DNA of 64,000 bases from an uncultured Pseudomonadota bacterium (lineage in GTDB: Bacteria > Oederibacteriota > Muellerivitia > Muellerivitales > Muellerivitaceae). Below the pieces are notes generated by a model that was given only the letters and a program-made list of their open reading frames with translations, made no database searches and was not told the origin of the DNA. How positions within the stretch are numbered: the first letter of the stretch is position 1; the number at the start of each line of letters is the position of its first letter. Both the position numbers and the translations under genes were made by a program. The DNA lies in contig CAVYRH010000003.1 in NCBI GenBank assembly GCA_963770835.1, positions 356,504-420,503 of the forward strand, given 5' to 3'. This document shows positions 26,798 through 44,689 of this stretch, piece by piece.

Positions 26798-26834
26798 CCT
26801 GCACATGCCTGTCGCAAAAAGGATAGTGTGCAAC
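26798..26834 (+). repeat. 37-bp array repeat R1 (variant A)
   Basis: CCTGCACATGCCTGTCGCAAAAAGGATAGTGTGCAAC. Confidence 0.97.
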
Positions 26835-26835
26835 C

Positions 26836-27318
26836 GAAGTGGTGTCGGGTGAGAATCTTAAAGGTGAAAAACTTACCGGCGGTGAAATAGCAGTTGCGGC
26901 ACTAAGTGTGGTTCCTACCGAAGGCATTTTGGCAAAACTGGGAAGTTTAATTAAAGACCTTCCCTTGGTTGGGAAGTTGTTTTTAAAAGAGGGAGGCTTA
27001 GAAGCCAAGAGTGCAATTGCGAGTGTAAAACTTAAAAATCAGTTAGTAGCGGCAGAAATAGCTGGTGGGCATGCGTTCAAAGACCACGTTGCCCAATTCA
27101 GTCACCTTGGTGTAAACACGAGGGAAGAATTTGCAGCTCATATAGAAGGTGTGATTAATAATCCCACAGAAGTTAAGTCGCTTGCAAATGGTAGAACAGC
27201 ATATTTTGACTCGAATACTGGAACTGTAGTTATCAGAAATCCCAATGCGGGACAGGAAGGAACTGCGTTTATTCCAGATCGTGTTACTCCAAAGGAATAT
27301 TTTAATGGCTTACATTGA
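26836..27318 (+). pseudogene. 5'-truncated polymorphic toxin C-terminal tip (CdiA/Rhs-CT-like, probable RNase)
   Basis: GHAF..HV, GRTAY.D...GTVVIRNP....GTAF.P; frame begins at R1 with no N-terminal delivery domain. Confidence 0.65.
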
Positions 27319-27634
27319 TCGTGCTGGCGATGAAGGAGGTCGTTTGACGGAAACGGAAGCCGGGATTATTAAGGAATGTCTTATAGCTGCTGTCAAAGGG
27401 CCTTTTTTTCCGGAGTATGTGTTTCAAACTATTATTGGTTGGGACCGTGTAGAAGTTGATTCGGTACTTCGTCAGTGGCCGCAAAATAGTAATGATCCTA
27501 AAGTTAGGATGATCGTAAAAAATGTTTTGTTAAATCTTTTTGCCTATCCTCACCATAAAGAAGAGGAATTGAAAAAATATATTTCGACAGATGCAAATGA
27601 AATACGGCAATTAGGTAAAAAAATTGGTGAATAA
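27305..27634 (+). CDS. Putative cognate immunity protein
   Basis: Small ORF overlapping the toxin stop codon. Confidence 0.55.
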   Translation: MAYIDRAGDEGGRLTETEAGIIKECLIAAVKGPFFPEYVFQTIIGWDRVEVDSVLRQWPQNSNDPKVRMIVKNVLLNLFAYPHHKEEELKKYISTDANEIRQLGKKIGE

Positions 27635-27662
27635 AAAACACGTATGGTCGCAGACTAAAAAA

Positions 27663-27699
27663 CCTGCACATGCCTGTCGCAAAAAGGATAGTGTGCAAC
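27663..27699 (+). repeat. 37-bp array repeat R2 (variant A)
   Basis: Identical to R1. Confidence 0.97.
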
Positions 27700-27721
27700 T
27701 GAAGTCGAACGGGCATGCCTT

Positions 27722-28760
27722 TGACCGGCCCCCCAAGTTTGTGCCACCAATTAAGTCACTCCCGGAGTAGGAGTTCCTGAGGTCGTCATGGGCAAGGTGT
27801 TGCCTTTGGGCCCCATGACGACCGCCTCCGGGGCAGGCGGTTTATACCCCAGAGAGCTGTGCGGCCGTTTCGTATTGTACTCCTTCCTCCACCTCTCAGC
27901 GAGCACTCGGCCTTCCCACACCGTGTCGAGCAGTTCGCCGTTCAATAGTTCGTCCCTGAATTTGCCGTTGAAGCTTTCGTTATAGCCGTTCTCCCAAGGG
28001 CTTCCCGGTTCGATGAAAAGGGTCTTTACTCCCACCTTCGGGAGCCAGTCCTTCACCCTCTCCGCTGTGAATTCAGGCCCATTGTCGGAGCGGATGTGCT
28101 CCGGCACTCCCCGTTGGACGAACAAGTCCGTCAGCACTGCCTGCACGTCGTCCGCCGTAAACTTCCGAGCTACCGGCAGGGCCAGGCATTCACGGGTGAA
28201 CTCATCGATCAGCGTCAGGAACCGAAGAGGCCGTCCGTCGCTGGTCCTCTCGGCGACGAAGTCATAGCTCCAAACGTGGTTGGGGTGTTCCGCCCTCAAC
28301 CTGACACAGGAACCATCCGTAAACCACAACCTCCTTCGTTTCGGCTGTTTTTTCGGTACTTTCAACCCTTCCTGCTTCCAAATCCTTTCCACCCGCTTCT
28401 TGTTGACCCTCCAGCCCTCCTCCTGAAGCATCTTGGTAATCCGCTTATACCCATACCGCCCGTACTGGCAGGCCAGCCGGAGAATGGCGGTCGTCAGGAG
28501 GTCCTCATCGGGCAGGATCTGAGGGATATATCGCTGGGTGCTCCGGGGTTGGCCGAGGGCCCGGCATACGCGCCGCTGGGAGGCTCGGTGGGTTTCACAC
28601 GCTTCCCGAACCGCTTTTCGGCGCTTTTCCGGGCTTAGGAGTTTCCCCGGGCCAAGTCTTTCAGGATGCGGTTATCCAGGGAGAGGTCGGCCACCACCCG
28701 CTTGAGCTGGGTATTCTCTTTCTCCAATTCCTTTAGGCGTTTGGCCTGGTCCAGCTTGAG
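27722..28760 (-). mobile_element. IS3-family element truncated at its left end
   Basis: orfB DDE motifs (WSYDF, SDNGPEF, GSPWENG..ESFNG), orfA tail LKLDQAKRLKELEKEN, probable IR TGACCGGCCCCCC at 27722; orfA cut at R3. Confidence 0.92.
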
Positions 28761-28797
28761 CCTGCACATGGCCCTCCCAAAAAGGATGGTGTGCAAC
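28761..28797 (+). repeat. 37-bp array repeat R3 (variant B)
   Basis: CCTGCACATGGCCCTCCCAAAAAGGATGGTGTGCAAC; 5 substitutions vs variant A. Confidence 0.95.
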
Positions 28798-28841
28798 TTT
28801 GAAAGCCTTTGAGTTAATTATTGGTTTCAATAGGATTTAAA

Positions 28842-28857
28842 GGTGACTTAAGTCACA
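28842..28857. promoter_or_regulatory. Crp/Fnr-family (HcpR/CRP-type) binding site
   Basis: gGTGA-cttaag-TCACA upstream of norB. Confidence 0.7.
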
Positions 28858-28920
28858 GTATTGTTGAGAATTATGTCTTAAAAAGAATACGAATTTTAAT
28901 ATCTTGGCGGGAGGCGGCTG

Positions 28921-31182
28921 GTGGAAATTTCCAAAGCTTGGCGGCATGCGGCGGTATTGGTTGTCATTATTGGATTTTCAGTTTTGATGTTCATGGGGAA
29001 AAAAGTTTACGAAAACGCTCCTCCTATACCCGCCAAGGTGGTTGAGGCTTCTGGAAAAGTCCTTTTCACCGGAGAGGATATCTTGACAGGCCAAGCCGTT
29101 TTCCAGCAATACGGCCTTATGGATTACGGTTCTATCTTTGGTCATGGTGCCTATCGTGGGCCCGATTTTACGGACGACTACATGCACCGCTCGGCCTGGA
29201 TTCAGCGCGACGAGAAGGCCGAAGAGGAATTCAAACAGCCTTATGGAAATCTTTCGGAAAGTGAAAAAGCGAAAATCGGTCAGATGGTGATTTCGGACGC
29301 GAAAACCAACCGATACGATGAAAACACACAGACTTTAACCCTTACTCAAGAACAGGCTCAAGCATGGCCTCCCCTGGTTACCCATTACGTTGATGTTTTC
29401 ATGAACAGTGGGGAAGACCACAGCCTTCCAAAAAATTACATCAAAACCACGGATGAAGTCCAAAAACTCACCGATTTCTTCGCCTGGACCGCTTGGACGG
29501 CATCGACCCAAAGACCCGGAAAAAATTACAGTTACACCAACAATTGGCCGCCTGAGGATGCTGTCGGGAACCGGCCTACCAGAGCCGTATTCCTTTGGAG
29601 TGTCCTTTCATTGATCTCTTTGTTGGGGGGATGCGCTTTGGTCCTGTTGTTTTTTGGCCGTTTCGATTACTTAGGGTGGGGTGGGGATGAGCCCGCGATA
29701 AAGAAAAGCATTCCGTTAAAAGATTTCAAAATCACTCCCAGCCAGGTGGCGACTTATAAATATTTCCTCATTGTGGCGTTGCTTTTTTCTTTCCAAACCC
29801 TCATGGGTGTGTTCACGGCTCACTATTTCGTAGAAGCCACGGGATTTTATGGATTAGATATCCGGGATATCCTGCCCACCACTATCACCCGCACCTGGCA
29901 TTTACAGCTTTCCATATTTTGGATCGCCACTGCTTGGCTGGCGGCTGGATTATTCATCGCTCCCTTCATTGGCCAAAGAGAACCTAAATACCAAGCCTTC
30001 TGGGTGAACGTCCTCTTTGGCGCGGTGGTATTGGTGGCGGTTGGTTCCATCGTTGGTGAATATTTGGGCATCAAGGCCAAGCTTGGACAGTATTGGTTCT
30101 GGTTCGGGCATCAAGGTTGGGAATATTTGGAACTGGGTCGCTTCTGGCAAATCCTTTTGACCGCTGGCATGGGTATTTGGGCAGTGTTGGTGCTTCGAAC
30201 GGTTTGGGGAAGGCTTAAGGGGCAGGATTGGGGCAGTTTGCCTTACCTTCTCGTTTACGGCATCCTGGCTATTCCCTTGATGTTCTCGGCGGGTTTGCTT
30301 TACACCCCGAGAACTAATTTCGCTATCGCCGATTTTTGGCGTTGGTGGGTGGTTCATTTGTGGGTGGAAAATTTCTTTGAACTATTCACTACCATCGTAG
30401 TGGCGTACTTCTTCGTTATCCTTGGTTTAGTGACAACCAAAACCGCTGTCCGGGTGGTTTACTTGGATATAATCCTTTATTTGGGATCGGGACTCATCGG
30501 TACGGGCCATCATTATTACTGGACTGCCCAACCAGCCATCAATCTGGCCTTGGGAGCCTTCTTCTCGGCCATGGAAGTGGTTCCTTTATTGCTCTTGACC
30601 CTTGAGGCTTATGACTTCGCCAAGCTCAGGAGAGGGGAGGCAGGCACGAAGGAATCGGACGGATTTTTCGCCCATTACTGGGCGATTATGTTCCTGATTG
30701 CGGTCGGCTTTTGGAACTTCGTAGGAGCCGGAATATTTGGTTTCCTTATCAACCTGCCTATTGTCAGCTACTACGAACACGCCACCTACTTAACGCCAAA
30801 TCACGCCCATGCGGCCTTGATGGGGGTTTACGGCAACCTGGCCATCGCTGCCTTAGTGTTCGTCCTGCGGTTCCTGGTCAAGCCTGAGCACTGGTCCAAC
30901 CGTTTATTAAAAATCTCCTTTTGGTCCCTGCAAATCGGCCTGATGATGATGCTATTACTGGATATTTTCCCGGTGGGGATTTTGGAGATGGTCCAGAGTT
31001 ACACGCGAGGCTACTGGTTTGCCCGAAGCGTGGATTTCTGGAGCCAACCCATCGTCCAAAAACTTACTTGGGCCAGGATGGCAGGCGACCTAACTTTCGT
31101 CGTTGGCGGAGTTTTGCCTCTTCTCTACTTCACGGTTAGATCGATGTTTTATTTGAGAAAACCGGACGCCAATCCGGAATGA
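28921..31182 (+). CDS. norB: Quinol-dependent nitric oxide reductase (qNor)
   Basis: GSI.GHGAY.GPD, YTNNWP, RTWHLQL, WWVVHLWVE..FE, GTGHH, HAHAA. Confidence 0.95.
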   Translation: MEISKAWRHAAVLVVIIGFSVLMFMGKKVYENAPPIPAKVVEASGKVLFTGEDILTGQAVFQQYGLMDYGSIFGHGAYRGPDFTDDYMHRSAWIQRDEKAEEEFKQPYGNLSESEKAKIGQMVISDAKTNRYDENTQTLTLTQEQAQAWPPLVTHYVDVFMNSGEDHSLPKNYIKTTDEVQKLTDFFAWTAWTASTQRPGKNYSYTNNWPPEDAVGNRPTRAVFLWSVLSLISLLGGCALVLLFFGRFDYLGWGGDEPAIKKSIPLKDFKITPSQVATYKYFLIVALLFSFQTLMGVFTAHYFVEATGFYGLDIRDILPTTITRTWHLQLSIFWIATAWLAAGLFIAPFIGQREPKYQAFWVNVLFGAVVLVAVGSIVGEYLGIKAKLGQYWFWFGHQGWEYLELGRFWQILLTAGMGIWAVLVLRTVWGRLKGQDWGSLPYLLVYGILAIPLMFSAGLLYTPRTNFAIADFWRWWVVHLWVENFFELFTTIVVAYFFVILGLVTTKTAVRVVYLDIILYLGSGLIGTGHHYYWTAQPAINLALGAFFSAMEVVPLLLLTLEAYDFAKLRRGEAGTKESDGFFAHYWAIMFLIAVGFWNFVGAGIFGFLINLPIVSYYEHATYLTPNHAHAALMGVYGNLAIAALVFVLRFLVKPEHWSNRLLKISFWSLQIGLMMMLLLDIFPVGILEMVQSYTRGYWFARSVDFWSQPIVQKLTWARMAGDLTFVVGGVLPLLYFTVRSMFYLRKPDANPE

Positions 31183-31216
31183 CGAAGAAACGTTAGGGGA
31201 AAAAGGGTCCTGAATC

Positions 31217-31702
31217 TTGAAACGTGAAAAATTTCTTTGGCCGTTGACCCAAGGACACCATGGGGCGCTGGTGGCGGCCCGGAATATCCGAGACCGCCTT
31301 TCCAAGCTGAACGAAGGTGAAAAAAATACCCTAGTTGTCTTGAGCCAAGAAATCTCGGGCCTTTTTGCTAGAGATTTAGAACCGCATTTTCGCGGGGAAG
31401 AGGAAGAACTCCTAAAGGTTTTTGAAAATCATGTAGGATCGGATGATTCGGACATTAAAAAAATATTGCAAGACCATCAAACCATCCGAGCCTTATCAAC
31501 GTCAGTGACCCAAAAAGATCTTCAACTCTTTGCCGATACTCTTACCGCCCATATCCGTTTTGAGGAGGATGTTTTTTTCCCCAGAGTGGAAAAAACCCTG
31601 ACTGAGGAAGAAAAAGACCGTGAGACGAAAAAGTTACTTCCTTACAAACCTGCCGAGACTCATGTCCCCCACCGCTTGACCGAAAAACCAACCGATAAAT
31701 AA
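31217..31702 (+). CDS. Hemerythrin-domain protein
   Basis: HH, HF..EE, H, HIRFEE..FP. Confidence 0.85.
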   Translation: MKREKFLWPLTQGHHGALVAARNIRDRLSKLNEGEKNTLVVLSQEISGLFARDLEPHFRGEEEELLKVFENHVGSDDSDIKKILQDHQTIRALSTSVTQKDLQLFADTLTAHIRFEEDVFFPRVEKTLTEEEKDRETKKLLPYKPAETHVPHRLTEKPTDK

Positions 31703-31719
31703 ATTGGAGTCTTCCCATT

Positions 31720-32388
31720 TTATTTTTTTAAAAAAACTTCCAAACCTTTAACATTGGTTAGGCTTGCGTTTCGTTGTTTATCAATCGAAATGAACCCTCC
31801 CTTTTCAAGCTTGGCTAAAGCCCTTGAAACGACTTCCCGAACCGACCCCAGCCGCGCGGCAATGACGGAAATGGGCGGCAATTTTAGTTTTTTTAATTTT
31901 TTATCCCTGAATTCCTGCAACAAAAAGGCTGCTAAACGTTGATCGACTTCCTTTAGGGAAAGGGATTCAACAAGGGCCGCTGTTTTACGAAGACGGGAAG
32001 CCATCAGCTTCAAGGCGGAAAGGGCGATAGCGGGGTGTCTCAAGCAAAGCCTTTTGACATCCTCCCTGGAGATGAAAAGCACTTCGCTTTCTTCCTCGGC
32101 ACGGACTGAAGAGGGATAAGGTTCATCATCAAAGGTAGGTACTTCGGCGATGGTGGTTCCGGCCTTTTCCAAGTGGATGATTTGCTCCCGCCCTTCAGTG
32201 TTATCCCGATAGGCCCTTAAGGAACCCTTGGCGATGACATAAAGGCCTCTGGCCTTATCCCCGGATATGAAGAGAACCTCCCCTTTTTTCAGCCTCTTTT
32301 CCACACAAACACCAGCAATAACGCCCAGTTCATCCGGCCCGAGAGAGCCAAACATTTCCGTTTTTTTCAAGGAAGCAATCTTATCCAT
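31720..32388 (-). CDS. Crp/Fnr-family transcriptional regulator
   Basis: cNMP-binding domain; HTH LGSVREVVSRAL. Confidence 0.92.
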   Translation of the reverse strand: MDKIASLKKTEMFGSLGPDELGVIAGVCVEKRLKKGEVLFISGDKARGLYVIAKGSLRAYRDNTEGREQIIHLEKAGTTIAEVPTFDDEPYPSSVRAEEESEVLFISREDVKRLCLRHPAIALSALKLMASRLRKTAALVESLSLKEVDQRLAAFLLQEFRDKKLKKLKLPPISVIAARLGSVREVVSRALAKLEKGGFISIDKQRNASLTNVKGLEVFLKK

Positions 32389-32437
32389 TTGCCCATCATA
32401 TCGTTGGAGAAGGGTTTCCTCAAGAATAGGGTCTTTT

Positions 32438-32453
32438 AGTGACTTGAGTCACG
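32438..32453. promoter_or_regulatory. Crp/Fnr-family binding site
   Basis: GTGA-cttgag-TCAC between regulator and ric. Confidence 0.7.
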
Positions 32454-32512
32454 GCGTCAAGAACCCTTGGGGCTTAAATTGAAACCGTAAGAAGGACACA
32501 AGGAGATTCAAA

Positions 32513-33259
32513 ATGAAAACAGAAACCAAAAAATTCGAGGCCGACAAAACGGTGGGGGATATCGCTTCCGAATTTCCGAGGACTATACCACTTTTTGAGG
32601 GTTTGAAAATCGATTACTGCTGTGGGGGAGCCCGGTCATTGAGGGAGGCCTGTTCGTTAGTGGGCGTTCCGGTAGAGAAGGTTGTTTCGGATTTAGAGAG
32701 GCTTGAGGCCGAATCGAATCAGGAGGAGGTATTACCCGATTGGAAGACCCAAACTATGGCCGAATTGATCGACCATATCCTGGGAAAGCATCATGCTTTT
32801 ACACGAACCCAACTAAGCCGCCTAAAGGCTCTTTCGCAAAAGGTCGAGGGAGTTCATGGCGGCAACCATTCCGAACTTTGCCGATTGGAGGAGATCATCA
32901 ATGAAATGTCCGAGGAGATGGAAGGACACATGGCGAAGGAAGAAGAGCAAGTTTTCCCCTATCTGAAGGCCCTGGAAGAGGCAAACGGCAAAAAAGAAGG
33001 TATTCCCAATCCTTTCGAAGGGGGGCCTTTGGAGAATCATCCTTTAAAAATCCTGATGTGGGAACACGGCATGACGGGAGAGGAATGGATTGAGATCCAT
33101 AAGATCACAAACGATCTCACCGCTCCTGCCGACGCCTGCCGGTCTTACAAAGCACTTTACTTAGGATTGAAGGATTTGGAGGACGATTTGCATCAACACG
33201 TCCACAAGGAAAACAATGTTCTTTTCCAGAAGTCCATTCATAACGGCTGGTTGGATTGA
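32513..33259 (+). CDS. ric: Iron-sulfur cluster repair di-iron protein (Ric/YtfE/ScdA)
   Basis: IDYCCGG, HH, HM.KEE..FP, HVH.ENN.LF. Confidence 0.93.
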   Translation: MKTETKKFEADKTVGDIASEFPRTIPLFEGLKIDYCCGGARSLREACSLVGVPVEKVVSDLERLEAESNQEEVLPDWKTQTMAELIDHILGKHHAFTRTQLSRLKALSQKVEGVHGGNHSELCRLEEIINEMSEEMEGHMAKEEEQVFPYLKALEEANGKKEGIPNPFEGGPLENHPLKILMWEHGMTGEEWIEIHKITNDLTAPADACRSYKALYLGLKDLEDDLHQHVHKENNVLFQKSIHNGWLD

Positions 33260-33309
33260 AATTTTGAAGATAAACGAGAATACTGAAAAACTAAATCAAG
33301 GAGGAAGAC

Positions 33310-33768
33310 ATGAAACGTGAAAAATTCCTGTGGCCTATAACCCATGCCCACCATTTCGGATTGATGACGGCCAAAACGCTTCAAAGGATGTTGGAAAAAA
33401 AACCTTCGAAGAAGGAACTGGAGGAATTGAAGCGAAAAGCTGAAAGATTCTTCAAGTCGGACTTGGAAGCGCATATCGGTGTGGAAGAGAAGATGTTAGA
33501 TCAACTCGCTTTCCATAAGGGTTCTGATGATCCATTATTGGCCCGGTCCCGGCGGGAGCATAAGGAGTTAAACCAACTGTTAAAAACGAGAAATTTGAAA
33601 TCGTTAAAATTGTTCGCTGAAAAACTCATCCAACACATTTATTTCGAGGAAGATAAGTTGTTCAAGGAAATCGAGGACCAATTCACACAGGCAGAAAAAG
33701 AGTGGGTGGAGACTGAAATTCAATTCAACATCCATGATTGGCCCAAAATTCCCGCGTTTAAAAATTAA
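33310..33768 (+). CDS. Hemerythrin-domain protein (paralog of 31217)
   Basis: Shared MKREKFLWP.T..HH N-terminus; HI.FEE. Confidence 0.8.
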   Translation: MKREKFLWPITHAHHFGLMTAKTLQRMLEKKPSKKELEELKRKAERFFKSDLEAHIGVEEKMLDQLAFHKGSDDPLLARSRREHKELNQLLKTRNLKSLKLFAEKLIQHIYFEEDKLFKEIEDQFTQAEKEWVETEIQFNIHDWPKIPAFKN

Positions 33769-33778
33769 GGAAGGCATC

Positions 33779-34126
33779 ATGCAACCGGAAATCCCGCCTA
33801 AAACAAAAGGCCTTCCAGGCGCTGAAGTCGCGAAGGCCGCCGAGTTAGTGAACTACCAGGAAGGTTCCGTTGTCAGCCGGGAAATTGTCAAGAAAACGAC
33901 TGGAACCGTAACGATTTTTGCATTCGATGAGGGACAAGGGTTGAGTGAACACACAGCCCCATTCGACGCGCTCGTACAGGCATTGGAAGGCGAGGTGGAA
34001 ATAAGCATTGCGGGCAAGCCTTATCACCTGCATTCCGGCGAGATAATTCTGATGCCAGCGAAACAGCCGCACGCCCTTAAGGCGTTGAAGCGGTTCAAAA
34101 TGATTCTCACAATGATTCGGTCTTAA
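33779..34126 (+). CDS. Cupin-domain protein
   Basis: FAFD.GQ.LSEHTAP.DA, MPA..PHAL. Confidence 0.88.
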   Translation: MQPEIPPKTKGLPGAEVAKAAELVNYQEGSVVSREIVKKTTGTVTIFAFDEGQGLSEHTAPFDALVQALEGEVEISIAGKPYHLHSGEIILMPAKQPHALKALKRFKMILTMIRS

Positions 34127-34150
34127 GCCTTAACCAAGAAAGGTAGGGTC

Positions 34151-34816
34151 ATGCGTCAAATACTCATTGTTCATGGTTCTATGGATGAGCGCTTTGAAGT
34201 GTTTTTCTCCAAGGTATTCCGTGCGGTGGCGGTTAAAACGGTTTGGGTAACCTATAAGGACCTCGTGGGAGGGCCTGCCTCAAAGGATAGAATCCAAAGG
34301 GAAATTCTAGAGTCGGACGCCTTGTTTTTCGTCCTCAGTAAGGATGAGGAAGTTTCCTCGCAAGCCAAGAACTGGTTCCCTTGGGCTACCACCCTTGCTA
34401 AAGAGAAAGATATTTGGGTTTTTGAGCATTGCGAGGATTTGAAACGCGTCCCTGTTTTGATCCCCAACCTTGGGCATTATGTAGCTTATTACATTACCAA
34501 TGCCTGGTGCGATTACGTCACGAAGTTTGCCGAAACTTACGAAAAACCAAAAGCTGCTGGGCCCGTCTTGCCCGAGGCCTTATTAAAACCGCTGACTCCG
34601 ACAGAAGAAGGATCATTCTTTGATCCCTCCACGGGGTTCGCTTTTTTCGACGATTCAACAGCCAGGCCTATTGGATTAAAGGCCGTCTGTCCGGCCTGCT
34701 CCGGAGTTTACAGTCTGCATATTCCTTCCGAAATGAAGGCCATCCGGTGCCCTTCTTGCGGTCATCTTTATGGTATCCAGCAATCCCCTAAAGCATCTAT
34801 ACCGGCCAAAGCGTGA
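34151..34816 (+). CDS. Hypothetical protein with C-terminal zinc ribbon
   Basis: CPAC...CPSC. Confidence 0.6.
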   Translation: MRQILIVHGSMDERFEVFFSKVFRAVAVKTVWVTYKDLVGGPASKDRIQREILESDALFFVLSKDEEVSSQAKNWFPWATTLAKEKDIWVFEHCEDLKRVPVLIPNLGHYVAYYITNAWCDYVTKFAETYEKPKAAGPVLPEALLKPLTPTEEGSFFDPSTGFAFFDDSTARPIGLKAVCPACSGVYSLHIPSEMKAIRCPSCGHLYGIQQSPKASIPAKA

Positions 34817-34881
34817 CGGGCCAAATAAAGTTACCCGCTGGACGAATTTTGAATGGAATCAATCAAGTAGGGAATTCGGAC

Positions 34882-35232
34882 ATGATTCAAATCAAACGGA
34901 TTTATTTGAAGCCTCAAATCAAAGATGGAAAACGCTATTTAGTGGACCGGCTTTGGCCCAGGGGAATAAAAAAGAAAAAAGCTGGATTGTCGGGTTGGAC
35001 CAGGGACGTCACTCCTAGCGCAAGGTTAAGGAAATGGTTCAATCATGATCCTAAGAAATGGAAGGAATTCCAAAAAAGGTATGGCCGGGAACTGGCTGCC
35101 CAGCGGGAGGCGCTCAAACCCCTTTTCGAGGCTGCCAAGAGAGGCACATTGACACTTTTATTTGCCGCCAAGGATGCCGATCACAACAACGCTGTGGTCC
35201 TTCAAAAATATTTAAAGTCAAATCAGGCTTAA
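34882..35232 (+). CDS. DUF488 (YeaO-like) protein
   Basis: IKRIY, LVDRLWPRG, PS..LRKWF.HDP, HNNA.VL. Confidence 0.9.
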   Translation: MIQIKRIYLKPQIKDGKRYLVDRLWPRGIKKKKAGLSGWTRDVTPSARLRKWFNHDPKKWKEFQKRYGRELAAQREALKPLFEAAKRGTLTLLFAAKDADHNNAVVLQKYLKSNQA

Positions 35233-36299: not shown

Positions 36300-36352
36300 T
36301 TAAACTCCTAAACTTTTGTAGTTTTAGAATGCTTCAATTAGCGATTTATCGA

Positions 36353-36368
36353 TGTGACTTATCTCACG
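36353..36368. promoter_or_regulatory. Crp/Fnr-family binding site
   Basis: TGTGA-cttatc-TCACg upstream of 36299 (minus strand gene). Confidence 0.6.
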
Positions 36369-36602
36369 CTTTGTCAAAATTTCGCGAAGGAGGAAATGGC
36401 TTATTTTAGAGTCAGATAATAATTAAAAAGATCATTAGGCTTTCTTTGGCTCAAAATCTGGTGACCCTTCCTATGTCATTTGGTGTCATATACGTGTCAT
36501 TCGAATTCGGTTTTTACCGGAGGGACTACCAATTTAATCATGAAGTCCGTTCAGTGGGGTCCGGGCCTTGGATCGGCCCGGCGGCTTTCGCCTTGTGAAA
36601 AA

Positions 36603-36639
36603 CCTGCACATGGCCCTCCCAAAAAGGATGGTGTGCAAC
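36603..36639 (+). repeat. 37-bp array repeat R4 (variant B)
   Basis: Identical to R3. Confidence 0.95.
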
Positions 36640-36852
36640 TAATTCCCCGGGAATTCGGCTTTGAAGCTTTCCATTGGAACCTGAAAGACGTCAGGGATTT
36701 GATCCTGAAAAAATGGGGGATCCATTTCCATCAAGGGAGCATTGGCTGGCAATTCAGGAAAAGGGGTTGCAAGCTTGTCCCGATTGGTCCGGGTGAACCT
36801 CCCAACACCTCAAACTCCCGTTACTGGTTCCAAAAATGGGTCGGACCAAAGG
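36640..36852 (+). pseudogene. Internal fragment of IS630-type winged-HTH protein
   Basis: PREFGF...HWNLKDVRDLILKKWGIHF....I...FRKRG; bounded by R4 and R5. Confidence 0.55.
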
Positions 36853-36889
36853 CCTGCACATGCCTGTCGCAAAAAGGATAGTGTGCAAC
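36853..36889 (+). repeat. 37-bp array repeat R5 (variant A)
   Basis: Identical to R1. Confidence 0.97.
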
Positions 36890-36934
36890 TGAGTTTGTCG
36901 GCCCGAAGGCAAGGAACTGTGGAATGCTCTGGTC

Positions 36935-37369
36935 ATGGGAAAATATTGGTCAGGCGCACATACCAGACACCGACTGCAATATCACCTCGTTTGGATACCC
37001 AAGTATCGGAAACGAGTCTTGCTTGGCAAAGTTGCCGTCCGCCTGCAAGAGCTGTTTAGAGAGGCGGCCCACGTCAACCGTTGGGTAATCCACGAATTGA
37101 ATATTCAGCGAGACCACGTGCATATGCTGATCCAGGTTGAGCCAAAGGTGAGTGTGGCTAAAGTGGTGCAGGTGCTAAAAGGCGGTACAAGCACCAAGAT
37201 CAGGCGTGAGTACCCTGAACTTGAGGAGTTTCTCTGGGGGGATAGTTTTTGGGCGGACGGCTACTTTGCGGAAAGTATAGGCACTGTGCAGGAGGAGATG
37301 ATCCGCAAATATATCCGCGAGCAACAGCATGACCAGAGTATGCCGAAAGGTAGAAACCCCGGGCTTTAG
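36935..37369 (+). CDS. tnpA: IS200/IS605-family HUH (Y1) transposase
   Basis: YHLVWIPKYRK, DHVH, LKG.TS, FWADGYF, YI..Q; hairpin CCCCGGGCT-TT-AGCCCGGGG at 37357-37376. Confidence 0.95.
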   Translation: MGKYWSGAHTRHRLQYHLVWIPKYRKRVLLGKVAVRLQELFREAAHVNRWVIHELNIQRDHVHMLIQVEPKVSVAKVVQVLKGGTSTKIRREYPELEEFLWGDSFWADGYFAESIGTVQEEMIRKYIREQQHDQSMPKGRNPGL

Positions 37370-37471
37370 CCCGGGGAGATTCATTAGCAAATAAACTAAC
37401 TTTCTTGAATCGAACCTTTTTGGGGGATAATTACCAAACAAGTTTCTTGTCCAATAATTTTGGGAGTGAAA

Positions 37472-37753
37472 ATGGCCGATAAGAAAAGAATTATTGTGAA
37501 TGTTTTTTTTGTGCTGATAGTACTATTGGCGGGAATTGCAGCTCTCTTTTTATTTTTTTTAATGCCGGTAATACATTCTAAGTTTGCAATTTTCCATGAA
37601 TATGGATTTTTGTGGCCTCTTTTTTACATTCTTTTTATTGTTTTATACTTTTTTGTTTTTTTTAAGTTGATCATTTGGTTATTAATCAAGTTTGTATATA
37701 TGAAAATTATTGCTTGGATTGACAGAACAGACCCCCAAAGAAAAATCCCTTGA
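37472..37753 (+). CDS. Small hypothetical membrane protein
   Basis: Two TM segments, AT-rich. Confidence 0.55.
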   Translation: MADKKRIIVNVFFVLIVLLAGIAALFLFFLMPVIHSKFAIFHEYGFLWPLFYILFIVLYFFVFFKLIIWLLIKFVYMKIIAWIDRTDPQRKIP

Positions 37754-37792
37754 GGGTTCGAGGTTCAAAAACGCTTTTCCAGAGGAAGTTAA

Positions 37793-38530
37793 TTGAATAA
37801 CACTTTTAAAATACTGGGATTCTTTTTTCTTTCTACGGCCCTGTTCTTTATTCAGAACCCAAGCCAGGATTTTGGAAATATCGGGTCGGTTGTCTCTGCC
37901 ATTCTGGCGATTGTTTTCCTTATAGGTGGTTTCAAATATCCGGGTGCCCTTAAAAAAATCTCGATTTTCCTCCTGCTTGTTTTTTTGGGAGCGTGCATCC
38001 CCGTTTTTCTTTTTCCGGTTGTGGAAATACTGACGGGATTCCAGGTGTATAGCCAGTTGGTATCTAATAATTGGAAGCTTATAAGTGCGATTTTAGGCGC
38101 CTTATTTTCCCCTTCCTTTTGGTATTTGTTTCGTCGAATCAACCCGGACTGGAAAAGGTTGGCTGGCGGCATCCTTATATGGACGATTCTTTCGGGAATT
38201 ATCCATTTTCTTTTTTTAGACCAGAGTTCGTACGCCTACCGGCGCATGGACGGTGGACTTAGGTTGAAGGGGAATGTTTACTACCGTACAAAACATTTTA
38301 ATGATATCGACATCCTAGCCAACTCGGGGACACTTATTAAGGTCGTGGAGGTTCCTGGAAACATCTTAAGCCAGGTTTGGAAATATGACCCAACCAGAGT
38401 CTTGATCCCGCAAGGAAAAGCGGTTCAGGTCGATTTTGATGTCCTTAATACAAATCGGACAAATCTGATGGTGTTTAGGGGATCAAACTCCATCCAAGTA
38501 ATGGAGGGTAAAACCAATATCGGCAAGTAA
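37793..38530 (+). CDS. Hypothetical membrane protein
   Basis: Several TM segments plus soluble C-terminus. Confidence 0.6.
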   Translation: MNNTFKILGFFFLSTALFFIQNPSQDFGNIGSVVSAILAIVFLIGGFKYPGALKKISIFLLLVFLGACIPVFLFPVVEILTGFQVYSQLVSNNWKLISAILGALFSPSFWYLFRRINPDWKRLAGGILIWTILSGIIHFLFLDQSSYAYRRMDGGLRLKGNVYYRTKHFNDIDILANSGTLIKVVEVPGNILSQVWKYDPTRVLIPQGKAVQVDFDVLNTNRTNLMVFRGSNSIQVMEGKTNIGK

Positions 38531-38541
38531 AAGTCCGATGG

Positions 38542-39855
38542 GTGCCTGAAATAGCGAATACGGCATTAAAAAAAACCCAAGGTATCCGTGTTACCCATCC
38601 TTGGATCGGGAAAATCCTTACTTTTTTCATGGTCTTTGGACCGGGATTGATCGTGATGGAAGCCGACAATGACGCGGGAGCTGTTTCCACCTATACCCAA
38701 GCGGGCGCGCAGTATGGAACCGGCCTTCTATGGCTTTTACTGATCCTGCTCCCGGTGTGTTATTTCATCCAGGAGATGGTGGCCCGGTTGGGAATCGCCA
38801 CGGGCCAGGGCCATGCCGCCATGATTTATAAGCGGTTTGGAAAATGGTGGGGTCGATTCTCTTTGATCGATCTCCAATTGGTTAATTTCCTGACTCTAGT
38901 CACCGAATTTGCGGCCATTAACCTTGCCACCTCCAAAATGGGATTGTCCCCAATGGTTACCGTCCCTGTTGTGGCGGTAGGAACACTCGTGATGGTTTTG
39001 ACCGCTAGTTACCGGCGATGGGAAGCTATCACTCTCTTTCTTTGCTTACTGGACATCGCATGGATCGCTTATGCCATTCATCTAGGTCCTTCCTTGGGCA
39101 CAGTGCTCCAAAAAACTGTTACTTTTTCCGCCCCTTTAAAAGGATTCACGACAGACTATGTCTTTTTGGTCATCGCAATCGTTGGAACCACCATTGCCCC
39201 TTGGCAGCTTTTTTTCCAACAGAGTTGTGTGGCGGATAAGCGATTAAGATTTGCCGATCTGGGCTCGGCCCGGTTGGATACCTTTATTGGAGCGGTTTTC
39301 ACCATCGTGGTAGCCGGGTGCATGATGCTTGTTGGGGACGCCGCCACCCGAACAACAGCCGGATATGTTTATTCAGATCCAGCTCAAATGGCCGAATCCT
39401 TGGGGCTCCATTTCGGCCCTATCGTTAAAAGCGGTCTTTTGATGCTGATGTGCAACGCGGCGGTATTGGGAACCACGGCCATTTCACTTTCCAGCGCTTG
39501 GGCCTATGGGGAAGTCATGGGATGGCCCAGTAGCCTGGAGTTGAAGCCTCGACAAGCTCCTGGTTTTTATGCCGTTTACGTTTTGGTGGTCTTAGCGGCG
39601 GCGGGTCTGGTACTAATCCCCCAGGCTCCACTTCAACTCATCATTATGGGCGTTCAGGTCCTGGCGGGAGTCATGCTTCCCTCAGCCATCATCTTTTTGC
39701 AATTGCTTTTGAATGATAAAGAATTGTTGGGGGAGCGATTCGCCAATAAGCCCTGGAACAACTGGGTGAATTGGACCATCATCCTCGTCCTTTTCTTCCT
39801 TTCCCTGGTTTTAGCGGTGCAAGTCATGTTGCCTCGATTGTTCGCCCAATCTTAG
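38542..39855 (+). CDS. NRAMP-family divalent metal transporter
   Basis: GPGLI...ADNDAG...TY.Q.GA.YG, QEMV.RLG, GTTI.PW..FFQQS. Confidence 0.9.
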   Translation: MPEIANTALKKTQGIRVTHPWIGKILTFFMVFGPGLIVMEADNDAGAVSTYTQAGAQYGTGLLWLLLILLPVCYFIQEMVARLGIATGQGHAAMIYKRFGKWWGRFSLIDLQLVNFLTLVTEFAAINLATSKMGLSPMVTVPVVAVGTLVMVLTASYRRWEAITLFLCLLDIAWIAYAIHLGPSLGTVLQKTVTFSAPLKGFTTDYVFLVIAIVGTTIAPWQLFFQQSCVADKRLRFADLGSARLDTFIGAVFTIVVAGCMMLVGDAATRTTAGYVYSDPAQMAESLGLHFGPIVKSGLLMLMCNAAVLGTTAISLSSAWAYGEVMGWPSSLELKPRQAPGFYAVYVLVVLAAAGLVLIPQAPLQLIIMGVQVLAGVMLPSAIIFLQLLLNDKELLGERFANKPWNNWVNWTIILVLFFLSLVLAVQVMLPRLFAQS

Positions 39856-39881
39856 AAAACAAATCAAAAGGAGTCGTCGCG

Positions 39882-40103
39882 ATGAAAAACAACTCAAGCA
39901 CAGTGAAGAAAGAAGAATCTTTCTTGGTCATTCATCCATTGGACGATGTGCAGGAACAAAAGATGGACCCAAATGGTTTGGGGGCCATGGGGATGACTCC
40001 ATTGGTAAAGGGCTCTTTGATCACCCTGAGGGTTTATTTGATATTAATGGTGTTGATGATGATTTACCACGTTTTGGACTTAGCGGGGGTTTGGAAGATT
40101 TGA
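39882..40103 (+). CDS. Small membrane protein
   Basis: AAGGAG RBS; C-terminal TM. Confidence 0.6.
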   Translation: MKNNSSTVKKEESFLVIHPLDDVQEQKMDPNGLGAMGMTPLVKGSLITLRVYLILMVLMMIYHVLDLAGVWKI

Positions 40104-40271
40104 TTTCTTTTGTGCATGAGAAAGGGGGGCTTTTGTTCTTTTTGAATTCGATGACGTTTTTTGCTCACAGGTCGAAAGTGAAAGCCGTTTTGACCGTGGT
40201 TATTATTTTATTTTGCTTTGGTGCTAACCGAACGCTTTGGGCCGAGGATACAGCCAGCACTGAGGTATTTA

Positions 40272-40308
40272 CCTGCACATGCCTGTCGCAAAAAGGATAG
40301 TGTGCAAC
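40272..40308 (+). repeat. 37-bp array repeat R6 (variant A)
   Basis: Identical to R1; cuts a signal-peptide ORF (..LWAEDTASTEVF) on its left. Confidence 0.97.
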
Positions 40309-40309
40309 C

Positions 40310-40672
40310 CAAACAATTTCGGAATTTGATTATTTTGAAATCCCTCTTTTGGCGCGATATCAGCTTCCGTTTAATTGGGCGATCAAACCGAGCATCTTTG
40401 TAGGACCAAGTTTCGCAATTCTTACAGGTGTTAACCAAACATTTAATCAATCTGGCGCGCCAAGCTATTCCAGCAACAGTAGCAGTGGTTTTTCATCTAC
40501 AGAGTGGAGCGTTACAGGTGGTCTGGAAGCGGATTGGGAGAACTGGCTTTTAAACATTCGTTACACCCAGGGGTTAACTCAAATGAATACTATGCCCGCG
40601 TCATCGGGTTCAGTTTATATCGGCGCCCATAACATAACCTTTTCGATTTTAGCGGGTTATAGGATTTGGTGA
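40310..40672 (+). pseudogene. 5'-truncated outer-membrane beta-barrel (PorT-like) fragment
   Basis: DYFEIPLLARY, IFVGP, RY.QGL, terminal GYRIW; frame starts at R6. Confidence 0.7.
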
Positions 40673-40722
40673 CATTCAAAGTACTAAAGAGTCTGAAAAA
40701 GCCATCTAAAGGCGAAGCAATT

Positions 40723-42060
40723 ATGAAAAACCAAAGAAAAAATCTCATCGTTTTTTTTACATTGGCAACATTTTGGCAACTGCAAACTGCTATTGCTGAT
40801 GTTTTGGTATCCGAAAGCCAACCGCAATTTTTGAAAAAGGAAAGCCTAAAAGACTTCAATAAAAATAACTCCGTTCGTGTGGGGATAGATAATCCTTTTG
40901 AAAAACTTGGGAAAGTGGAATTGATTTACCTGGATAGATTTTCGGAACTTTTGAAAATATTGCCTGTTAACGCACACAAAACAAGTTTTCTTACCTTCAG
41001 TTCCGACGAAGATGGAAAATATTTTGCAATTAATACCGACCTTGGGAATTTTTTGGTCAGCTATGAAACCAAATCAATTGTTTTTGAATTGCTGCCACCC
41101 TACACACAAAAGGTAATTTACGTCAGCCCCAACTCAAAATATTTTGTGCTGGCGACGGAACAAGATGGAATCAGCTTTACCGACTTCTACGACCTTTCCA
41201 CAAAAGATAAAGTTTTTACGGCGGATGGGGATTTGATGGTTGACCACTTTATGGGCGCCGATGACGGATATGTTTTTGGAAACTATAAAGGCCGTGATGG
41301 TTTGATCGATTTAAAGAACCCAAAAAAATTCAGCCAAATTTCTCCTGACGACGTGCCACGCCCAGGTCAGTACAGTTCATTAGGACCGGACCGGGTTTTA
41401 GGTTATTCGGAAAAGTTGGACCAAATGGTTATTTGGGATCTTCCCTCAATGTCGGTTGAGAAAAGCTTTGAATCGCTTCCCAAAGGCGTTCCGTTTTCAA
41501 ACAACTCCGGAACTATCGTCGGTTCTTTTGACGAAAACAAAGTGTTTTTCTGCGATCTAAAAAGTGAAACAGTAAAGGGGTTTGCGTTTAGCAATTTGGA
41601 CCAAAATATCTTTATGGAAATGGCCCCAGGTAAAAGAAGGGTCAAAACCATCAAAGAAGGTGTCGCGGGTTGGCGGACTTTTGATACTTTCGAAGTTGTG
41701 AAAATGCATGACGTTGCGAAAAATGAAACTAAGGAATTCTCGCCCTCGGATGAAGGGGACCAAAAGAAAACGGAAATGCACTTAGCCCGAAGCGAGGGAA
41801 CTGGAAACTATTTCGTTGTGAGCGGAGTGGACCCTGATGAGAGTGGCGATGGGTTTTATGTGAGGTTCACATTGTGGTCCGAGGGGAAAAACGCAAAGCC
41901 TCCTTGCTCCCAGATAGCCCATTTCGACGGCAATTTGAATTTGGATAAAATCATTCATTTTTCAGTTCCTTTACTTCCCAGCTACAAATTTGATTCGAAG
42001 ACCGACAGAATTTTAGGGATCAGCCGCGATGGGATACACTACAAATTTGATTTAAAGTGA
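40723..42060 (+). CDS. Secreted beta-propeller-like hypothetical protein
   Basis: Signal peptide; beta-rich, SPNSKY and IWDL motifs. Confidence 0.6.
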   Translation: MKNQRKNLIVFFTLATFWQLQTAIADVLVSESQPQFLKKESLKDFNKNNSVRVGIDNPFEKLGKVELIYLDRFSELLKILPVNAHKTSFLTFSSDEDGKYFAINTDLGNFLVSYETKSIVFELLPPYTQKVIYVSPNSKYFVLATEQDGISFTDFYDLSTKDKVFTADGDLMVDHFMGADDGYVFGNYKGRDGLIDLKNPKKFSQISPDDVPRPGQYSSLGPDRVLGYSEKLDQMVIWDLPSMSVEKSFESLPKGVPFSNNSGTIVGSFDENKVFFCDLKSETVKGFAFSNLDQNIFMEMAPGKRRVKTIKEGVAGWRTFDTFEVVKMHDVAKNETKEFSPSDEGDQKKTEMHLARSEGTGNYFVVSGVDPDESGDGFYVRFTLWSEGKNAKPPCSQIAHFDGNLNLDKIIHFSVPLLPSYKFDSKTDRILGISRDGIHYKFDLK

Positions 42061-42063
42061 TTT

Positions 42064-43326
42064 ATGAAGCCCAATAAAAAAATTTCTTATTTAACATTTT
42101 TTTTCATTTTCCTTTTGGCGAAAAACATTTTCGCGCAGTGTGGAATATCGATCTCTTTATCGGATCCGCCAGATGGGGGATGTACTGCGGTGGGTACAAG
42201 TGGATCGATCACAATATCTGGAACAACAGGTGGTGTGTCCGATGATGCAATTGTAACAATTCACTATGGGAATAATTTAACAACCACAAGTGTTTCGAGC
42301 GATAAGTTTAGCCAAATAGTTTCTTTGTCGGCTTCCGATAATTCTTTTGGCATAACGGCTATTGTTAGCCAGGATTGTTCTGTCTGCTGTGACGACTCAA
42401 GCCCATGCACTGACATGAGTTGCACCGATTCACAGTCAGTGACAGCTACAAGTTCATATACTTATCAATTGCAACCGGACATCAGTATCGATAGCCCGCC
42501 AGATGGTGACACAAAATCAGTTGAGGGGCCGAATTATTTTTTCACGGTCAGTGGTAGTACAACTAACGTTCCATCGGGCACGAATATAATTATTTCAGGC
42601 GGTATTGCGGCAGTTACTGCTACAACTTCGGTGTCAGGGACATTTTCCCATGCTGTTACCATCCAGCCTTCGTCTTCGTCCATCGACATTACCGCTTCGG
42701 TTAGCACTGGGGCATGTGGTTCAGCATCGGATACAGCCACAGTCAACTATTCCTGCCTTATGCCTTCCGTCAACATTACCTCACCAGCGGATAATACGGT
42801 ATTGACCGGGACATCCGCCACCACGGTAATTTCCGTTAGTGGAACAACAACAAATATTCCTGTCGGAACCACCGTCACGATAATCGCGGGAAGTGTGACA
42901 ATTTCCGCTCTAGTGCAAAACGGAGGTTCTTTCAACGGTTCTATTTCAATACCACAATCATGTAATTCGGTTGCTATTTCCGCGTCGGCTGATGTGGGTA
43001 GCTGTGGTACCCCCACTAGTTCCGTGAATTTTGAATACACTATTTCTGCTCCAACATTGAATATCATCTCCCCGTATCAAGGGGTAACTATTGGGGCCTC
43101 ATATCCACAACCCACGCCAACACCCTTTGCCGGAACCGATGATTCACTCTCCCTTCCTGTTACTGGGACCACAAACGCACCTGACGGCAGCCAGGTTGCC
43201 ATAACCGGTTCTGGAATTTCAGAAGTTGATACATCCGTTTCTAACGGGATGTTTGAGGCTACAATCCAAATTCCCCCTACGCATAACTACATAAATGCCT
43301 GCACATGCCTGTCGCAAAAAGGATAG
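42064..43326 (+). pseudogene. 3'-truncated secreted protein with tandem Ig-like repeats
   Basis: Four I.SP.D...VSGTT repeats; last residues CTCLSQKG* are supplied by R7. Confidence 0.75.
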
Positions 43327-43334
43327 TGTGCAAC
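43298..43334 (+). repeat. 37-bp array repeat R7 (variant A)
   Basis: Identical to R1. Confidence 0.97.
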
Positions 43335-43478
43335 ATATTGAGCTGTTTCCCAAAGTGAGAAACAGCAATAAGCCCCATAATCTCTTGGCACTTTTTAAAT
43401 TTTTAAAAACTTCGCCATTCATTAACAAACGCCTTTCAATCTACTAACTGTTGCCCAAAAGTTACTTTTCAAAAATAT

Positions 43479-43964
43479 CTATCGGTTAAAATATTTTTTA
43501 ACTTTTCCCAAAACAGAAGGTGTAATTTCCACATTTGGGTTATTTTTTTGTGCAAAATGTACCGCATCCACTAAAATCCTTAAATGATTGCTAGTCCAGA
43601 GAAAACTAACCATGACACCCCCGCGTTTAAAATCGATGTAGTAATTCCACGACCAATAAGCGCGTCTATAAATGCCAACAACTTCACTCCAAGGCCAAAA
43701 ATTTTCATCTTTTGGCTTAAATGAGTTTTTCATCGTGACTCCACTCTCGTCATAGGTCCATCGAGGGGTTAATGCTCGATTAAAAGCCACCAAAAATAAA
43801 AACAGACCAAAGACAACTATTAAGATTGGTTTCGTGATTTCGGCATCTGGTTCCCCCAATTTCTTCACAAGAACAAAAAGGCTCATCCCTAAAAAAAGTC
43901 CCATGAGCAAAACAGTGAATTTAGATCCATAAACTTTTGTGTTTTTCATTTCAAACCACTTCAC
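43479..43964 (-). CDS. Hypothetical membrane protein (immunity-like position)
   Basis: Two TM + PH-like soluble part, downstream of a truncated hydrophobic ORF. Confidence 0.55.
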   Translation of the reverse strand: MKWFEMKNTKVYGSKFTVLLMGLFLGMSLFVLVKKLGEPDAEITKPILIVVFGLFLFLVAFNRALTPRWTYDESGVTMKNSFKPKDENFWPWSEVVGIYRRAYWSWNYYIDFKRGGVMVSFLWTSNHLRILVDAVHFAQKNNPNVEITPSVLGKVKKYFNR

Positions 43965-43991
43965 TTAATCTTTAAAATTGAAAAAGAAAAA

Positions 43992-44219
43992 TCACGGTCC
44001 TGAAAACCACCCACTAATGGTGCTTATCGCATTGTTTATTACGGGAGCGGCTTGTTGTTGAATATATTTCCAACCTGCCGATGCCGCGGTCGAACCGGCA
44101 ACATAGGCAAGGGGTGCAAGCGCTTGTGTTCCCTCTTCCACCAGCGGAGCCAAAGGCCCCGAAACTGAGGCCAATGCTGCTCCCCCTGCTTCCAATGCGC
44201 CAACGGCCAAATCACTACC
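43992..44219 (-). pseudogene. C-terminal fragment of Gly/Ala-rich (Rhs-tip-like) protein
   Basis: GSDLAVGALEAGGAALA...GWFSGP*; frame begins at R8. Confidence 0.45.
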
Positions 44220-44256
44220 CCTGCACATGCCTGTCGCAAAAAGGATAGTGTGCAAC
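44220..44256 (+). repeat. 37-bp array repeat R8 (variant A)
   Basis: Identical to R1. Confidence 0.97.
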
Positions 44257-44365
44257 TACAAAATCCGTTCAATTGAAATTATACGATATAAATAATGAAT
44301 TAATTGGTAACAACAACCTTGGATTCAGTGGGGTTAATTTGGACACAATTTTTTTAGGCCGGTTT

Positions 44366-44402
44366 GTTGCACACTATCCTTTTTGCGACAGGCATGTGCA
44401 GG
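44366..44402 (-). repeat. 37-bp array repeat R9 (variant A, inverted)
   Basis: GTTGCACACTATCCTTTTTGCGACAGGCATGTGCAGG = exact reverse complement of R1. Confidence 0.97.
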
Positions 44403-44565
44403 GTTGAAAGTGGACTCCGCAATCCACGAGGTCAAGCAAGCGAAGGAGCAAGGTGGCAAGCCTGAATTCATCAAGTGCTACTACCCCTTCAACAACCTCA
44501 ACGACGAGGTTCTGCCCGAAGCCGAGAAGGTCTACAAGGCCCTCCCGGTGAAAAAGGGCAAGTAA
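44403..44565 (+). pseudogene. 5'-truncated ORF tail
   Basis: LKVDSAIHEVK...KALPVKKGK*; degenerate second copy of the 3' end at ~46071-46140. Confidence 0.5.
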
Positions 44566-44689
44566 GAGGAACGGCCCCGCCGGGGGCTTTGTACCCGGCA
44601 ATTAGTCTTTATTTGACTACGGTTCAATAAAGTTGTACCTTATAAATAAGTTTTACATAGTAAATATGTTTTACTTTTGGGAGGTTTTT

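Follow-up and report, generated by a model that had tools for sequence, protein, structure and literature searches.

The window analysed here is a stretch of 64,000 nucleotides (nt) from an uncultured Pseudomonadota bacterium (assembly GCA_963770835.1, contig CAVYRH010000003.1). Between positions 26798 and 44402 it carries nine copies of a 37-nt repeat of the type found in CRISPR arrays, eight of them direct and one (R9) inverted. Seven copies are identical, and R3 and R4 share one variant with five mismatches, which is common in the genomes G023, G027, G030 and G014. The repeats enclose eight segments, S1 to S8, with a GC content of 0.30 to 0.59 (Table 1). The same repeat was detected 27 times, in four clusters, in the 4.58-Mb genome, where a reversed control pattern gave no matches. 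Viral contigs held no exact copy, the Rfam scan of the window gave no matches, and folding of the repeat is weak (z -1.4 to -2.0).

Table 1. Repeats, inter-repeat segments and flanking DNA in the window
Feature	Coordinates	Strand	Description
Recombination-arm candidate	26444..26797	+	foreign allele of the 3' end of a 230-aa open reading frame (ORF) plus short AT-rich repeats; cut at R1
R1	26798..26834	+	37-nt CRISPR-type repeat
S1, 828 bp	26835..27662	+	C-terminal toxin tip (polymorphic interbacterial toxin) and, after it, a likely immunity gene
R2	27663..27699	+	repeat
S2, 1,061 bp	27700..28760	+	stub of 23 nt from the interior of cas1, followed by 1,039 nt of an IS3-family element with its cut in orfA
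R3	28761..28797	+	variant repeat (5 mismatches)
S3, 7,805 bp	28798..36602	+	intact nitric-oxide-stress cluster; both ends non-coding
R4	36603..36639	+	variant repeat, identical to R3
S4, 213 bp	36640..36852	+	last ~70 codons of a 162-aa winged-helix ORF; family match below Pfam cut-off
R5	36853..36889	+	repeat
S5, 3,382 bp	36890..40271	+	IS200-type element from inside its left-end hairpin (tnpA); two ORFs, Nramp-type transporter, 40-aa signal-peptide stub
R6	40272..40308	+	repeat
S6, 2,989 bp	40309..43297	+	C-terminal 120 aa of an outer-membrane beta-barrel, 464-aa ORF, immunoglobulin (Ig)-repeat protein cut in its last repeat
R7	43298..43334	+	repeat
S7, 885 bp	43335..44219	+	one contiguous donor piece; ORF cut at each end
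R8	44220..44256	+	repeat
S8, 109 bp	44257..44365	+	between convergent R8 and R9; one frame open throughout
R9	44366..44402	-	inverted repeat copy, convergent with R8
Mobile toxin-antitoxin/SpoVG-like unit	44403..50723	+	cut by R9 inside a 102-aa ORF; 99.5% identical to G004

We detected a cas1-cas2 module directly beside the repeat elsewhere in the genome. Four of the 27 copies have identical DNA on their left, a 1.5-kb module that consists of cas1, a 111-aa ORF (cas2) and a 22-nt leader and contains no gene other than these two, polB included. The cas1 product was identified as Cas1 (TIGR00287, E 1.5e-74); it scores best with the generic and the Cas1b/Cas1d models and stays below every subtype cut-off. 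The alignment of its relatives demonstrated conserved E, H and D/E motifs, which we take to be the catalytic residues. For the 111-aa ORF the Pfam Cas2 match is weak (below cut-off) in 11/11 aligned relatives and NCBIfam did not recognise Cas2; the predicted structure has a ferredoxin fold, and the best Foldseek matches to it are structures of Cas2 (E 2.8e-5). This ORF is a divergent Cas2 according to fold prediction and weak profile matches. The four modules are the sole Cas1 matches in the genome: two are intact, one has a stop in cas1, and one is truncated, beginning at a repeat inside cas1. No Cas4, RAMP, Cas12f/TnpB or Cas9 match and no Cas3 match over cut-off was obtained in the genome (96% complete; Cas12a-type proteins and Cas13 were not searched), and no short-spacer CRISPR array was found in it.

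A second repeat was observed in the same genome, a site of 28 bp in which the inverted arms measure 11 bp and the asymmetric core 6 bp (85 copies genome-wide, in the window at 55492-55519 and 56383-56410). The sites keep one orientation per contig (15 contigs), often lie 0.5-1.5 kb apart around single genes and look, by their architecture, like a tyrosine-recombinase cassette system. The cas1-cas2 modules may travel as such cassettes, because all three full modules start at a 28-bp site.

The association between module and repeat extends to distant relatives. The scan of GTDB genomes produced 12 cas1-cas2 loci, five at 96-100% Cas1 identity (four from candidate division FCPU426, one 'uncultured proteobacterium') and seven at 62-71% identity (five Patescibacteria groups, two 'uncultured bacterium'). 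A repeat-like sequence begins 2-22 nt after the cas2 stop in all 12, one of which is interrupted by the end of its contig; the 11 full-length loci each have a repeat-like sequence of their own there, and the repeat sequence diverges in step with Cas1 over the range of 62-100% identity. Locus L013 has 8 repeat copies 177-4,044 bp apart, L013, L014 and L016 all have further copies at distances of hundreds to thousands of bases, and the same layout with other repeat sequences was found in Patescibacteria. With a pattern that detects close variants only, the repeat type was found in 6 of 30 family genomes (0/3 of the own genus) and in 0/30 genomes outside the family. The 65 same-strand distances between neighbouring repeats (copies more than 15 kb apart and the inverted pair left out) range from 30 to 14,100 bp with a median of 1,589, and two of them are at most 50 bp. 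One segment (L009 11403-14879) contains housekeeping DNA, including a gene cut at its start that is, by its sequence, presumably dnaX-like.

The sequence-only reading of the window, made from the letters and their ORFs, had proposed that genes are cut mid-frame exactly at the repeats and that capture ignores gene boundaries. We consider the second statement right and most of the listed cuts real, but 5 of the 18 window junctions (R1 left, R2 left, R3 right, R4 left, R5 right) are non-coding. The cuts at R3, R7 right, R8 left and R9 were checked against uninterrupted donors of 99.5-100% identity, and those at R1, R4 and R6 right against longer homologues. Right of R1 the toxin tip lacks its N-terminus, as proposed: 11 longer homologues of 287-1,436 aa (RHS, DUF637, haemagglutinin) were detected, and the tip corresponds to the C-terminus of the 1,436-aa homologue aligned. 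Short 'orphan' toxin tips also occur naturally, which weakens this case, and no near-identical donor of the tip was found among the 30 family genomes. The second gene of S1 likely has an immunity role, judging by its position. The IS3 element left of R3 is indeed cut and without its left end, as intact copies of 100% identity demonstrate, but orfA is halved and not wholly lost; the cut lies at nt 230 of 1,270, inside orfA, with the loss of 51/92 codons. The helix-turn-helix piece between R4 and R5 had been read as cut on both sides. Its 76%-identical homologue in G004 is a 162-aa ORF, and the left cut removes ~90 aa, whereas no more than the final codon and the stop is lost at the right one.

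Around R6, the beta-barrel on the right begins mid-protein, at residue 100 of a 218-aa homologue; on the left, read-through of the 40-aa signal-peptide ORF is the one sign of the cut that had been claimed there. A single gene rejoined across R6 was considered and rejected, as the 40-aa ORF does not align with the 218-aa barrel homologue. The cut of the Ig-repeat protein at R7 is suggested by internal evidence, its last Ig repeat being ~22 aa shorter than the preceding two; a homologue search returned only the protein itself. At R7 right and R8 left the donor of 100% identity stays in open frame beyond both cuts, and at R9 the 102-aa ORF is cut after codon 49 (99.5% donor), both as anticipated. 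Real ORFs ending in a repeat-encoded peptide, which the same reading had noted, are found at R5, R6 and R7, but only there, about one frame in three being expected to do so. The right flank of R2, missed earlier, opens with 23 nt from inside cas1; therefore, together with the truncated module, the system has captured its own cas1 gene twice. No donors for S6 and S8 were found among the 30 family genomes.

The first 1,304 bp of S5 recur in two segments of another array, cut at different places. R5 joins S5 at 36890, the loop start of the IS200-type left-end hairpin, and a transposase nick could have supplied that end. S3 encodes a NorB-type reductase, hemerythrins, a Crp-type regulator, an ScdA/Ric-like protein, a cupin and a DUF488 protein. 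This nitric-oxide-stress cluster (28921-36299) is carried intact in a single segment, and near-identical DNA is present in four sequencing runs; the contig of run X2 leaves into other sequence at 28798, the left edge of S3.

To describe the breakpoints we used 98 left and 102 right unique flanks from the own genome and the fetched family loci, with duplicate loci of the own genome and the Patescibacteria loci set aside. A donor was defined as a match of at least 88% that starts at the junction base and continues without the repeat. Donors were resolved for 31 of the 200 flanks (14 right-side, 17 left-side); a few of them depend on 88-90% matches and one on a degenerate repeat. Every known donor runs on into other sequence, which agrees with the earlier statement that the flanks of a repeat do not rejoin, and insertion of a miniature inverted-repeat transposable element was rightly dismissed, because in 0/31 donors the left and right flanks of one repeat are contiguous. 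The joins are blunt and free of microhomology on both sides: the donor shares 0 nt with the repeat in 23 cases, 1 nt in 4, 2 nt in 2 and 3 nt in 2. The shared microhomology for which the sequence-only reading had advised a search is thus at chance level (8/31 share at least 1 nt vs 25% expected). No conserved base was found just outside the cuts in the 31 donors, that is, no protospacer adjacent motif (PAM) such as lies next to protospacers in CRISPR types I, II and V. The 14 right-side donors end in 13 different tetranucleotides, none of them equal to the last four bases of the repeat, and the 17 left-side donors have no conserved tetranucleotide. ORFs contain 18 of the 31 donor-resolved cuts, a somewhat smaller share than the 225/294 of nearby random positions (p=0.03, with a loose ORF definition).

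Breakpoints had also been called near-random. This holds with respect to microhomology and PAM, but a symmetric base preference was detected 3-7 nt inside each segment end. Among 191 segment ends read inward, G occurs 9 times at base 3 vs 44 expected, A/T 141 times at base 4 vs 104 expected, T 91 times at base 5 vs 51 expected, and A 78 times at base 7 vs 53 expected; for the avoidance of G at base 3 and the preference for T at base 5, p is about 1e-9. The bias is present separately in the own genome (G000, 50 ends) and in the other genomes (141 ends) and absent at 110 interior positions; locus L013 offers 15 non-leader ends, too few to judge. The left and right sides correlate as reverse complements (r=0.64, permutation p=0.0008; plain reversals r=0.12). 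All 191 ends are distinct, without terminal inverted repeats.

Among 63 segments, three align over their whole length with a single donor (379, 559 and 885 bp), the 559-bp one being the interior of an intact transposase gene; for a segment of 7,247 bp, the cover consists of overlapping pieces of a single donor contig. Of the pairs of neighbouring repeats, 52/63 are identical, and in polymorphic genomes 29/37 vs 15.9 expected; repeat duplication predicts such an excess, as does shared descent of arrays. The single-donor segments and the shared end bias point to a two-ended integrase. The repeats are the CRISPR-type repeats of a stand-alone cas1-cas2 module, and we regard it as probable that the segments are giant spacers inserted by this module without a length ruler. 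Cas1-Cas2 would then be the putative catalyst, as suggested by the sequence evidence. A ruler that fixes spacer size and half-site intermediates are established for Cas1-Cas2 (10.1101/2023.01.23.522648).

We propose that, as in CRISPR adaptation, Cas1-Cas2 would attach a single linear fragment through both its 3' ends, one on each side of a repeat, duplicating the repeat, and that fragments of almost any length could be inserted in place of snippets of ~35 bases, the length going unmeasured for lack of a ruler. Each Cas1 site may grip the terminal ~3-7 bases at one end, the middle of the fragment being looped out, and the same AT-rich, G-poor bias at both ends and the missing PAM would arise because each site grips one end. 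Fragments are potentially drawn from the own chromosome, ISs, other arrays and the DNA of relatives. Capture of pieces of other arrays (nested capture) would account for the R3/R4 pair between R2 and R5, of a variant common in other genera, for the stub of cas1 that follows R2 and for the inverted orientation of R9. Some events are probably one-ended. The outcome is suggested to be gene capture and genome shuffling rather than immunity, because no effector was found.

Several observations weigh against two-ended insertion of giant spacers. Only four segments are testable at both ends, donors being known for 31/200 flanks, and shared array descent also yields identical neighbouring repeats. R8-S8-R9, a 1,081-bp segment that ends at the natural leader, and a lone repeat in G004 are not single two-ended events and thus need nesting or recombination, and long segments containing the 28-bp cassette site may be composite. 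Cas1-cas2 genes are absent from the window. Contigs of four other runs over 25500-31700 (R1-R3) bridged no window junction, and the downstream backbone is present in three versions in the assembly.

The lone G004 repeat (L027 3470-3506) lies right after the stop codon of the toxin-antitoxin/SpoVG-like unit and is followed by about 1 kb of other DNA; 58 bp further on, the unit resumes. S7 is present inverted inside a 971-bp segment of the same genome (L034 6851-7821), with exactly 43 bp extra at each end. This suggests, in a single case, re-capture after symmetric trimming; by eye, 43/43-bp trimming was not seen again in the other donors.

According to one alternative, Cas1-Cas2 usually attaches a single broken end to one side of a repeat (half-site), the remainder being resolved by recombination of the host, so that the arrays are deletion and inversion scars, not stored inserts. 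The convergent R8/R9 pair, the segment that runs from inside cas1 to the natural leader, the lone repeat in G004 and the lack of a constant trailer after the last repeats would fit such a history, and half-site intermediates are established (10.1101/2023.01.23.522648). The four single-donor segments are, however, closed by direct repeats at both ends, neighbouring repeats match, and the bias is the same at both ends; we consider half-site joining unlikely as the main route, and it probably occurs as a minor one. Misassembly, in which unrelated contig pieces are joined at the 37-bp repeat, has to be weighed for a metagenome-assembled genome with three downstream backbone versions and with junctions in the R1-R3 region that are unbridged in contigs of other runs. 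Yet the same architecture is present in 6/30 family genomes and in Patescibacteria, short-read contigs of other runs carry the repeat with further flanks, and the cuts coincide to the base with the edges of the repeat and show an end bias like that of an enzyme; misjoins could alter the order of segments, but not the type of junction. We regard an assembly chimera as very unlikely.

Two explanations place the mobility elsewhere than in Cas1-Cas2. The 37-mer could itself be a tiny mobile element that inserts and promotes adjacent deletions, and scattered single copies in relatives are consistent with it; this is highly improbable, as contiguous flanks were found in 0/31 donors, the copies cluster in one orientation, and their flanks come from unrelated loci and other genomes. 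The sequence-only reading had favoured rolling-circle transposition from one end or illegitimate joining by a relaxase; in such a scheme, of the IS91/ISCR kind, the repeat would be the origin end. Cuts that ignore reading frames and the weak folding of the repeat are in keeping with that proposal. It fails, however, because the donor tetranucleotides vary freely (14 right-side and 17 left-side donors), while IS91-type elements insert beside a fixed tetranucleotide, according to PMC13181058; moreover, both sides of the repeat are cut, and the repeat follows cas2 across phyla and is tied to cas1-cas2. A search for a Y2 transposase gave 0 matches, but its control also matched nowhere. We find rolling-circle or relaxase joining hardly conceivable here.

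The arrays resemble several known systems in part. Integrons move whole-gene cassettes, which carry their own site, via a tyrosine recombinase. As in integron cassette arrays, foreign genes are stored serially between repeated sites here; unlike in integrons, genes are cut (18/31 junctions in ORFs) and the site is supplied by the target. The cas1-cas2 genes, the short leader, the 37-nt repeat, the direct repeats around inserts, the blunt joins and the ferredoxin fold of Cas2 are shared with CRISPR adaptation modules. In contrast to the one ruler-set spacer length of CRISPR adaptation, as described in 10.1101/2023.01.23.522648, spacers here measure 30 bp-14 kb. Further differences are the lack of a PAM, the symmetric internal end bias, the divergent Cas2, the storage of self DNA and whole gene clusters, and that no effector or Cas4 was found. 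The system is not classed as a CRISPR-Cas system although it acts like CRISPR adaptation, because regular spacing and PAM fail. A casposase inserts long DNA by both of its ends and creates a duplication of the target (PMC6977970), and the arrays share with casposons a Cas1-family enzyme that would put both ends of long DNA into a specific site and duplicate this site. Unlike in casposons, the inserts have no terminal inverted repeats, polB is absent, Cas2 is present, the duplication is 37 bp vs 14 bp, any DNA serves as cargo, and serial arrays are formed. With IS91/ISCR one-ended transposition the arrays share the movement of adjacent DNA with one arbitrary end; that process depends on a Y2 transposase as well as on a tetranucleotide in the target and leaves no duplication (PMC13181058), whereas both ends are arbitrary and no tetranucleotide is conserved in our arrays.

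The way in which the array reached this locus was analysed with relatives and other sequencing runs. Identity to G014 jumps from about 70% to 352/354 at 26444 and remains so up to R1. In G014 and G027 the DNA of 26444-26797 continues without a cut into the gene that follows, and in G030 a variant repeat joins the same DNA as the R1 left flank 99 bp earlier, ending a 7.2-kb segment. Contigs of runs X1 and X3 match the window to 26452 and then diverge. The array, without cas1-cas2, was likely brought in as one block when a captured piece of a relative's chromosome recombined at this locus, and the switch point would lie at 26444-26452. The right-hand recombination arm is possibly 44403-50723. 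The genes that follow the 230-aa ORF in relatives are found on a different contig in this genome; for this reason, and because of the threefold backbone, the arrangement to the right of R9 is less certain. Contigs of the four other runs carry the repeat with other flanks, an uncut cas1 and an uncut IS3.

A broader proposal, to which we would give slightly less than an even chance, is a self-spreading, CRISPR-derived platform for gene capture. Its ruler-less Cas1-Cas2 would clone any linear DNA of 30 bp to >10 kb into the 37-bp site, arrays would take up parts of one another and of their own cas genes, and chromosomal pieces once captured would act as recombination arms that move arrays and functional gene clusters, here for nitric-oxide detoxification, between genera. 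If true, it would be a third gene-capture route beside integrons and transposons and a two-protein integrase for cargo without special ends. A fixed spacer length set by Cas1-Cas2 is a core rule of CRISPR adaptation, and a natural pair that breaks the ruler would, if true, show how the ruler works. It would also provide a living intermediate between casposon transposition and spacer acquisition, whose link has been proposed (PMC6977970), and would open the question to tests with a pair of small proteins and a target of 37 bp. Used as a tool, it could potentially serve for insertion of kilobase DNA without transposon ends or homology arms and for recording of long DNA. In nature it would be a route for gene shuffling and horizontal transfer that CRISPR finders would miss, because they expect short regular spacers. 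No published description of such arrays was found in the literature searched; supplementary catalogues of CRISPR loci could hold the clade.

Additional observations were made at the locus. The contig of run X1 at window 26797-26835 has two copies of the repeat at a distance of 39 bases, which reflects either a spacer that is nearly empty or a graph artefact. The carboxypeptidase-phosphoglycerate mutase block is present three times in the own genome (G000 C3, C12, C25), which points to a strain mixture or alternative haplotypes. The region 26586-26796 consists of short AT-rich repeats with a 10-11-bp period and is intergenic in G014 and G027. To the right of the array, 44403-55400 contains tandem ~2.7-kb units, SpoVG-like genes, toxin-antitoxin pairs, ArdC, RadC and long hairpins; G004, which belongs to another genus, has DNA of 97-99.5% identity at this locus. 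A family of G/C-rich hairpin repeats is dispersed in the window at 15159, 21403, 25660, 57280 and 58139.

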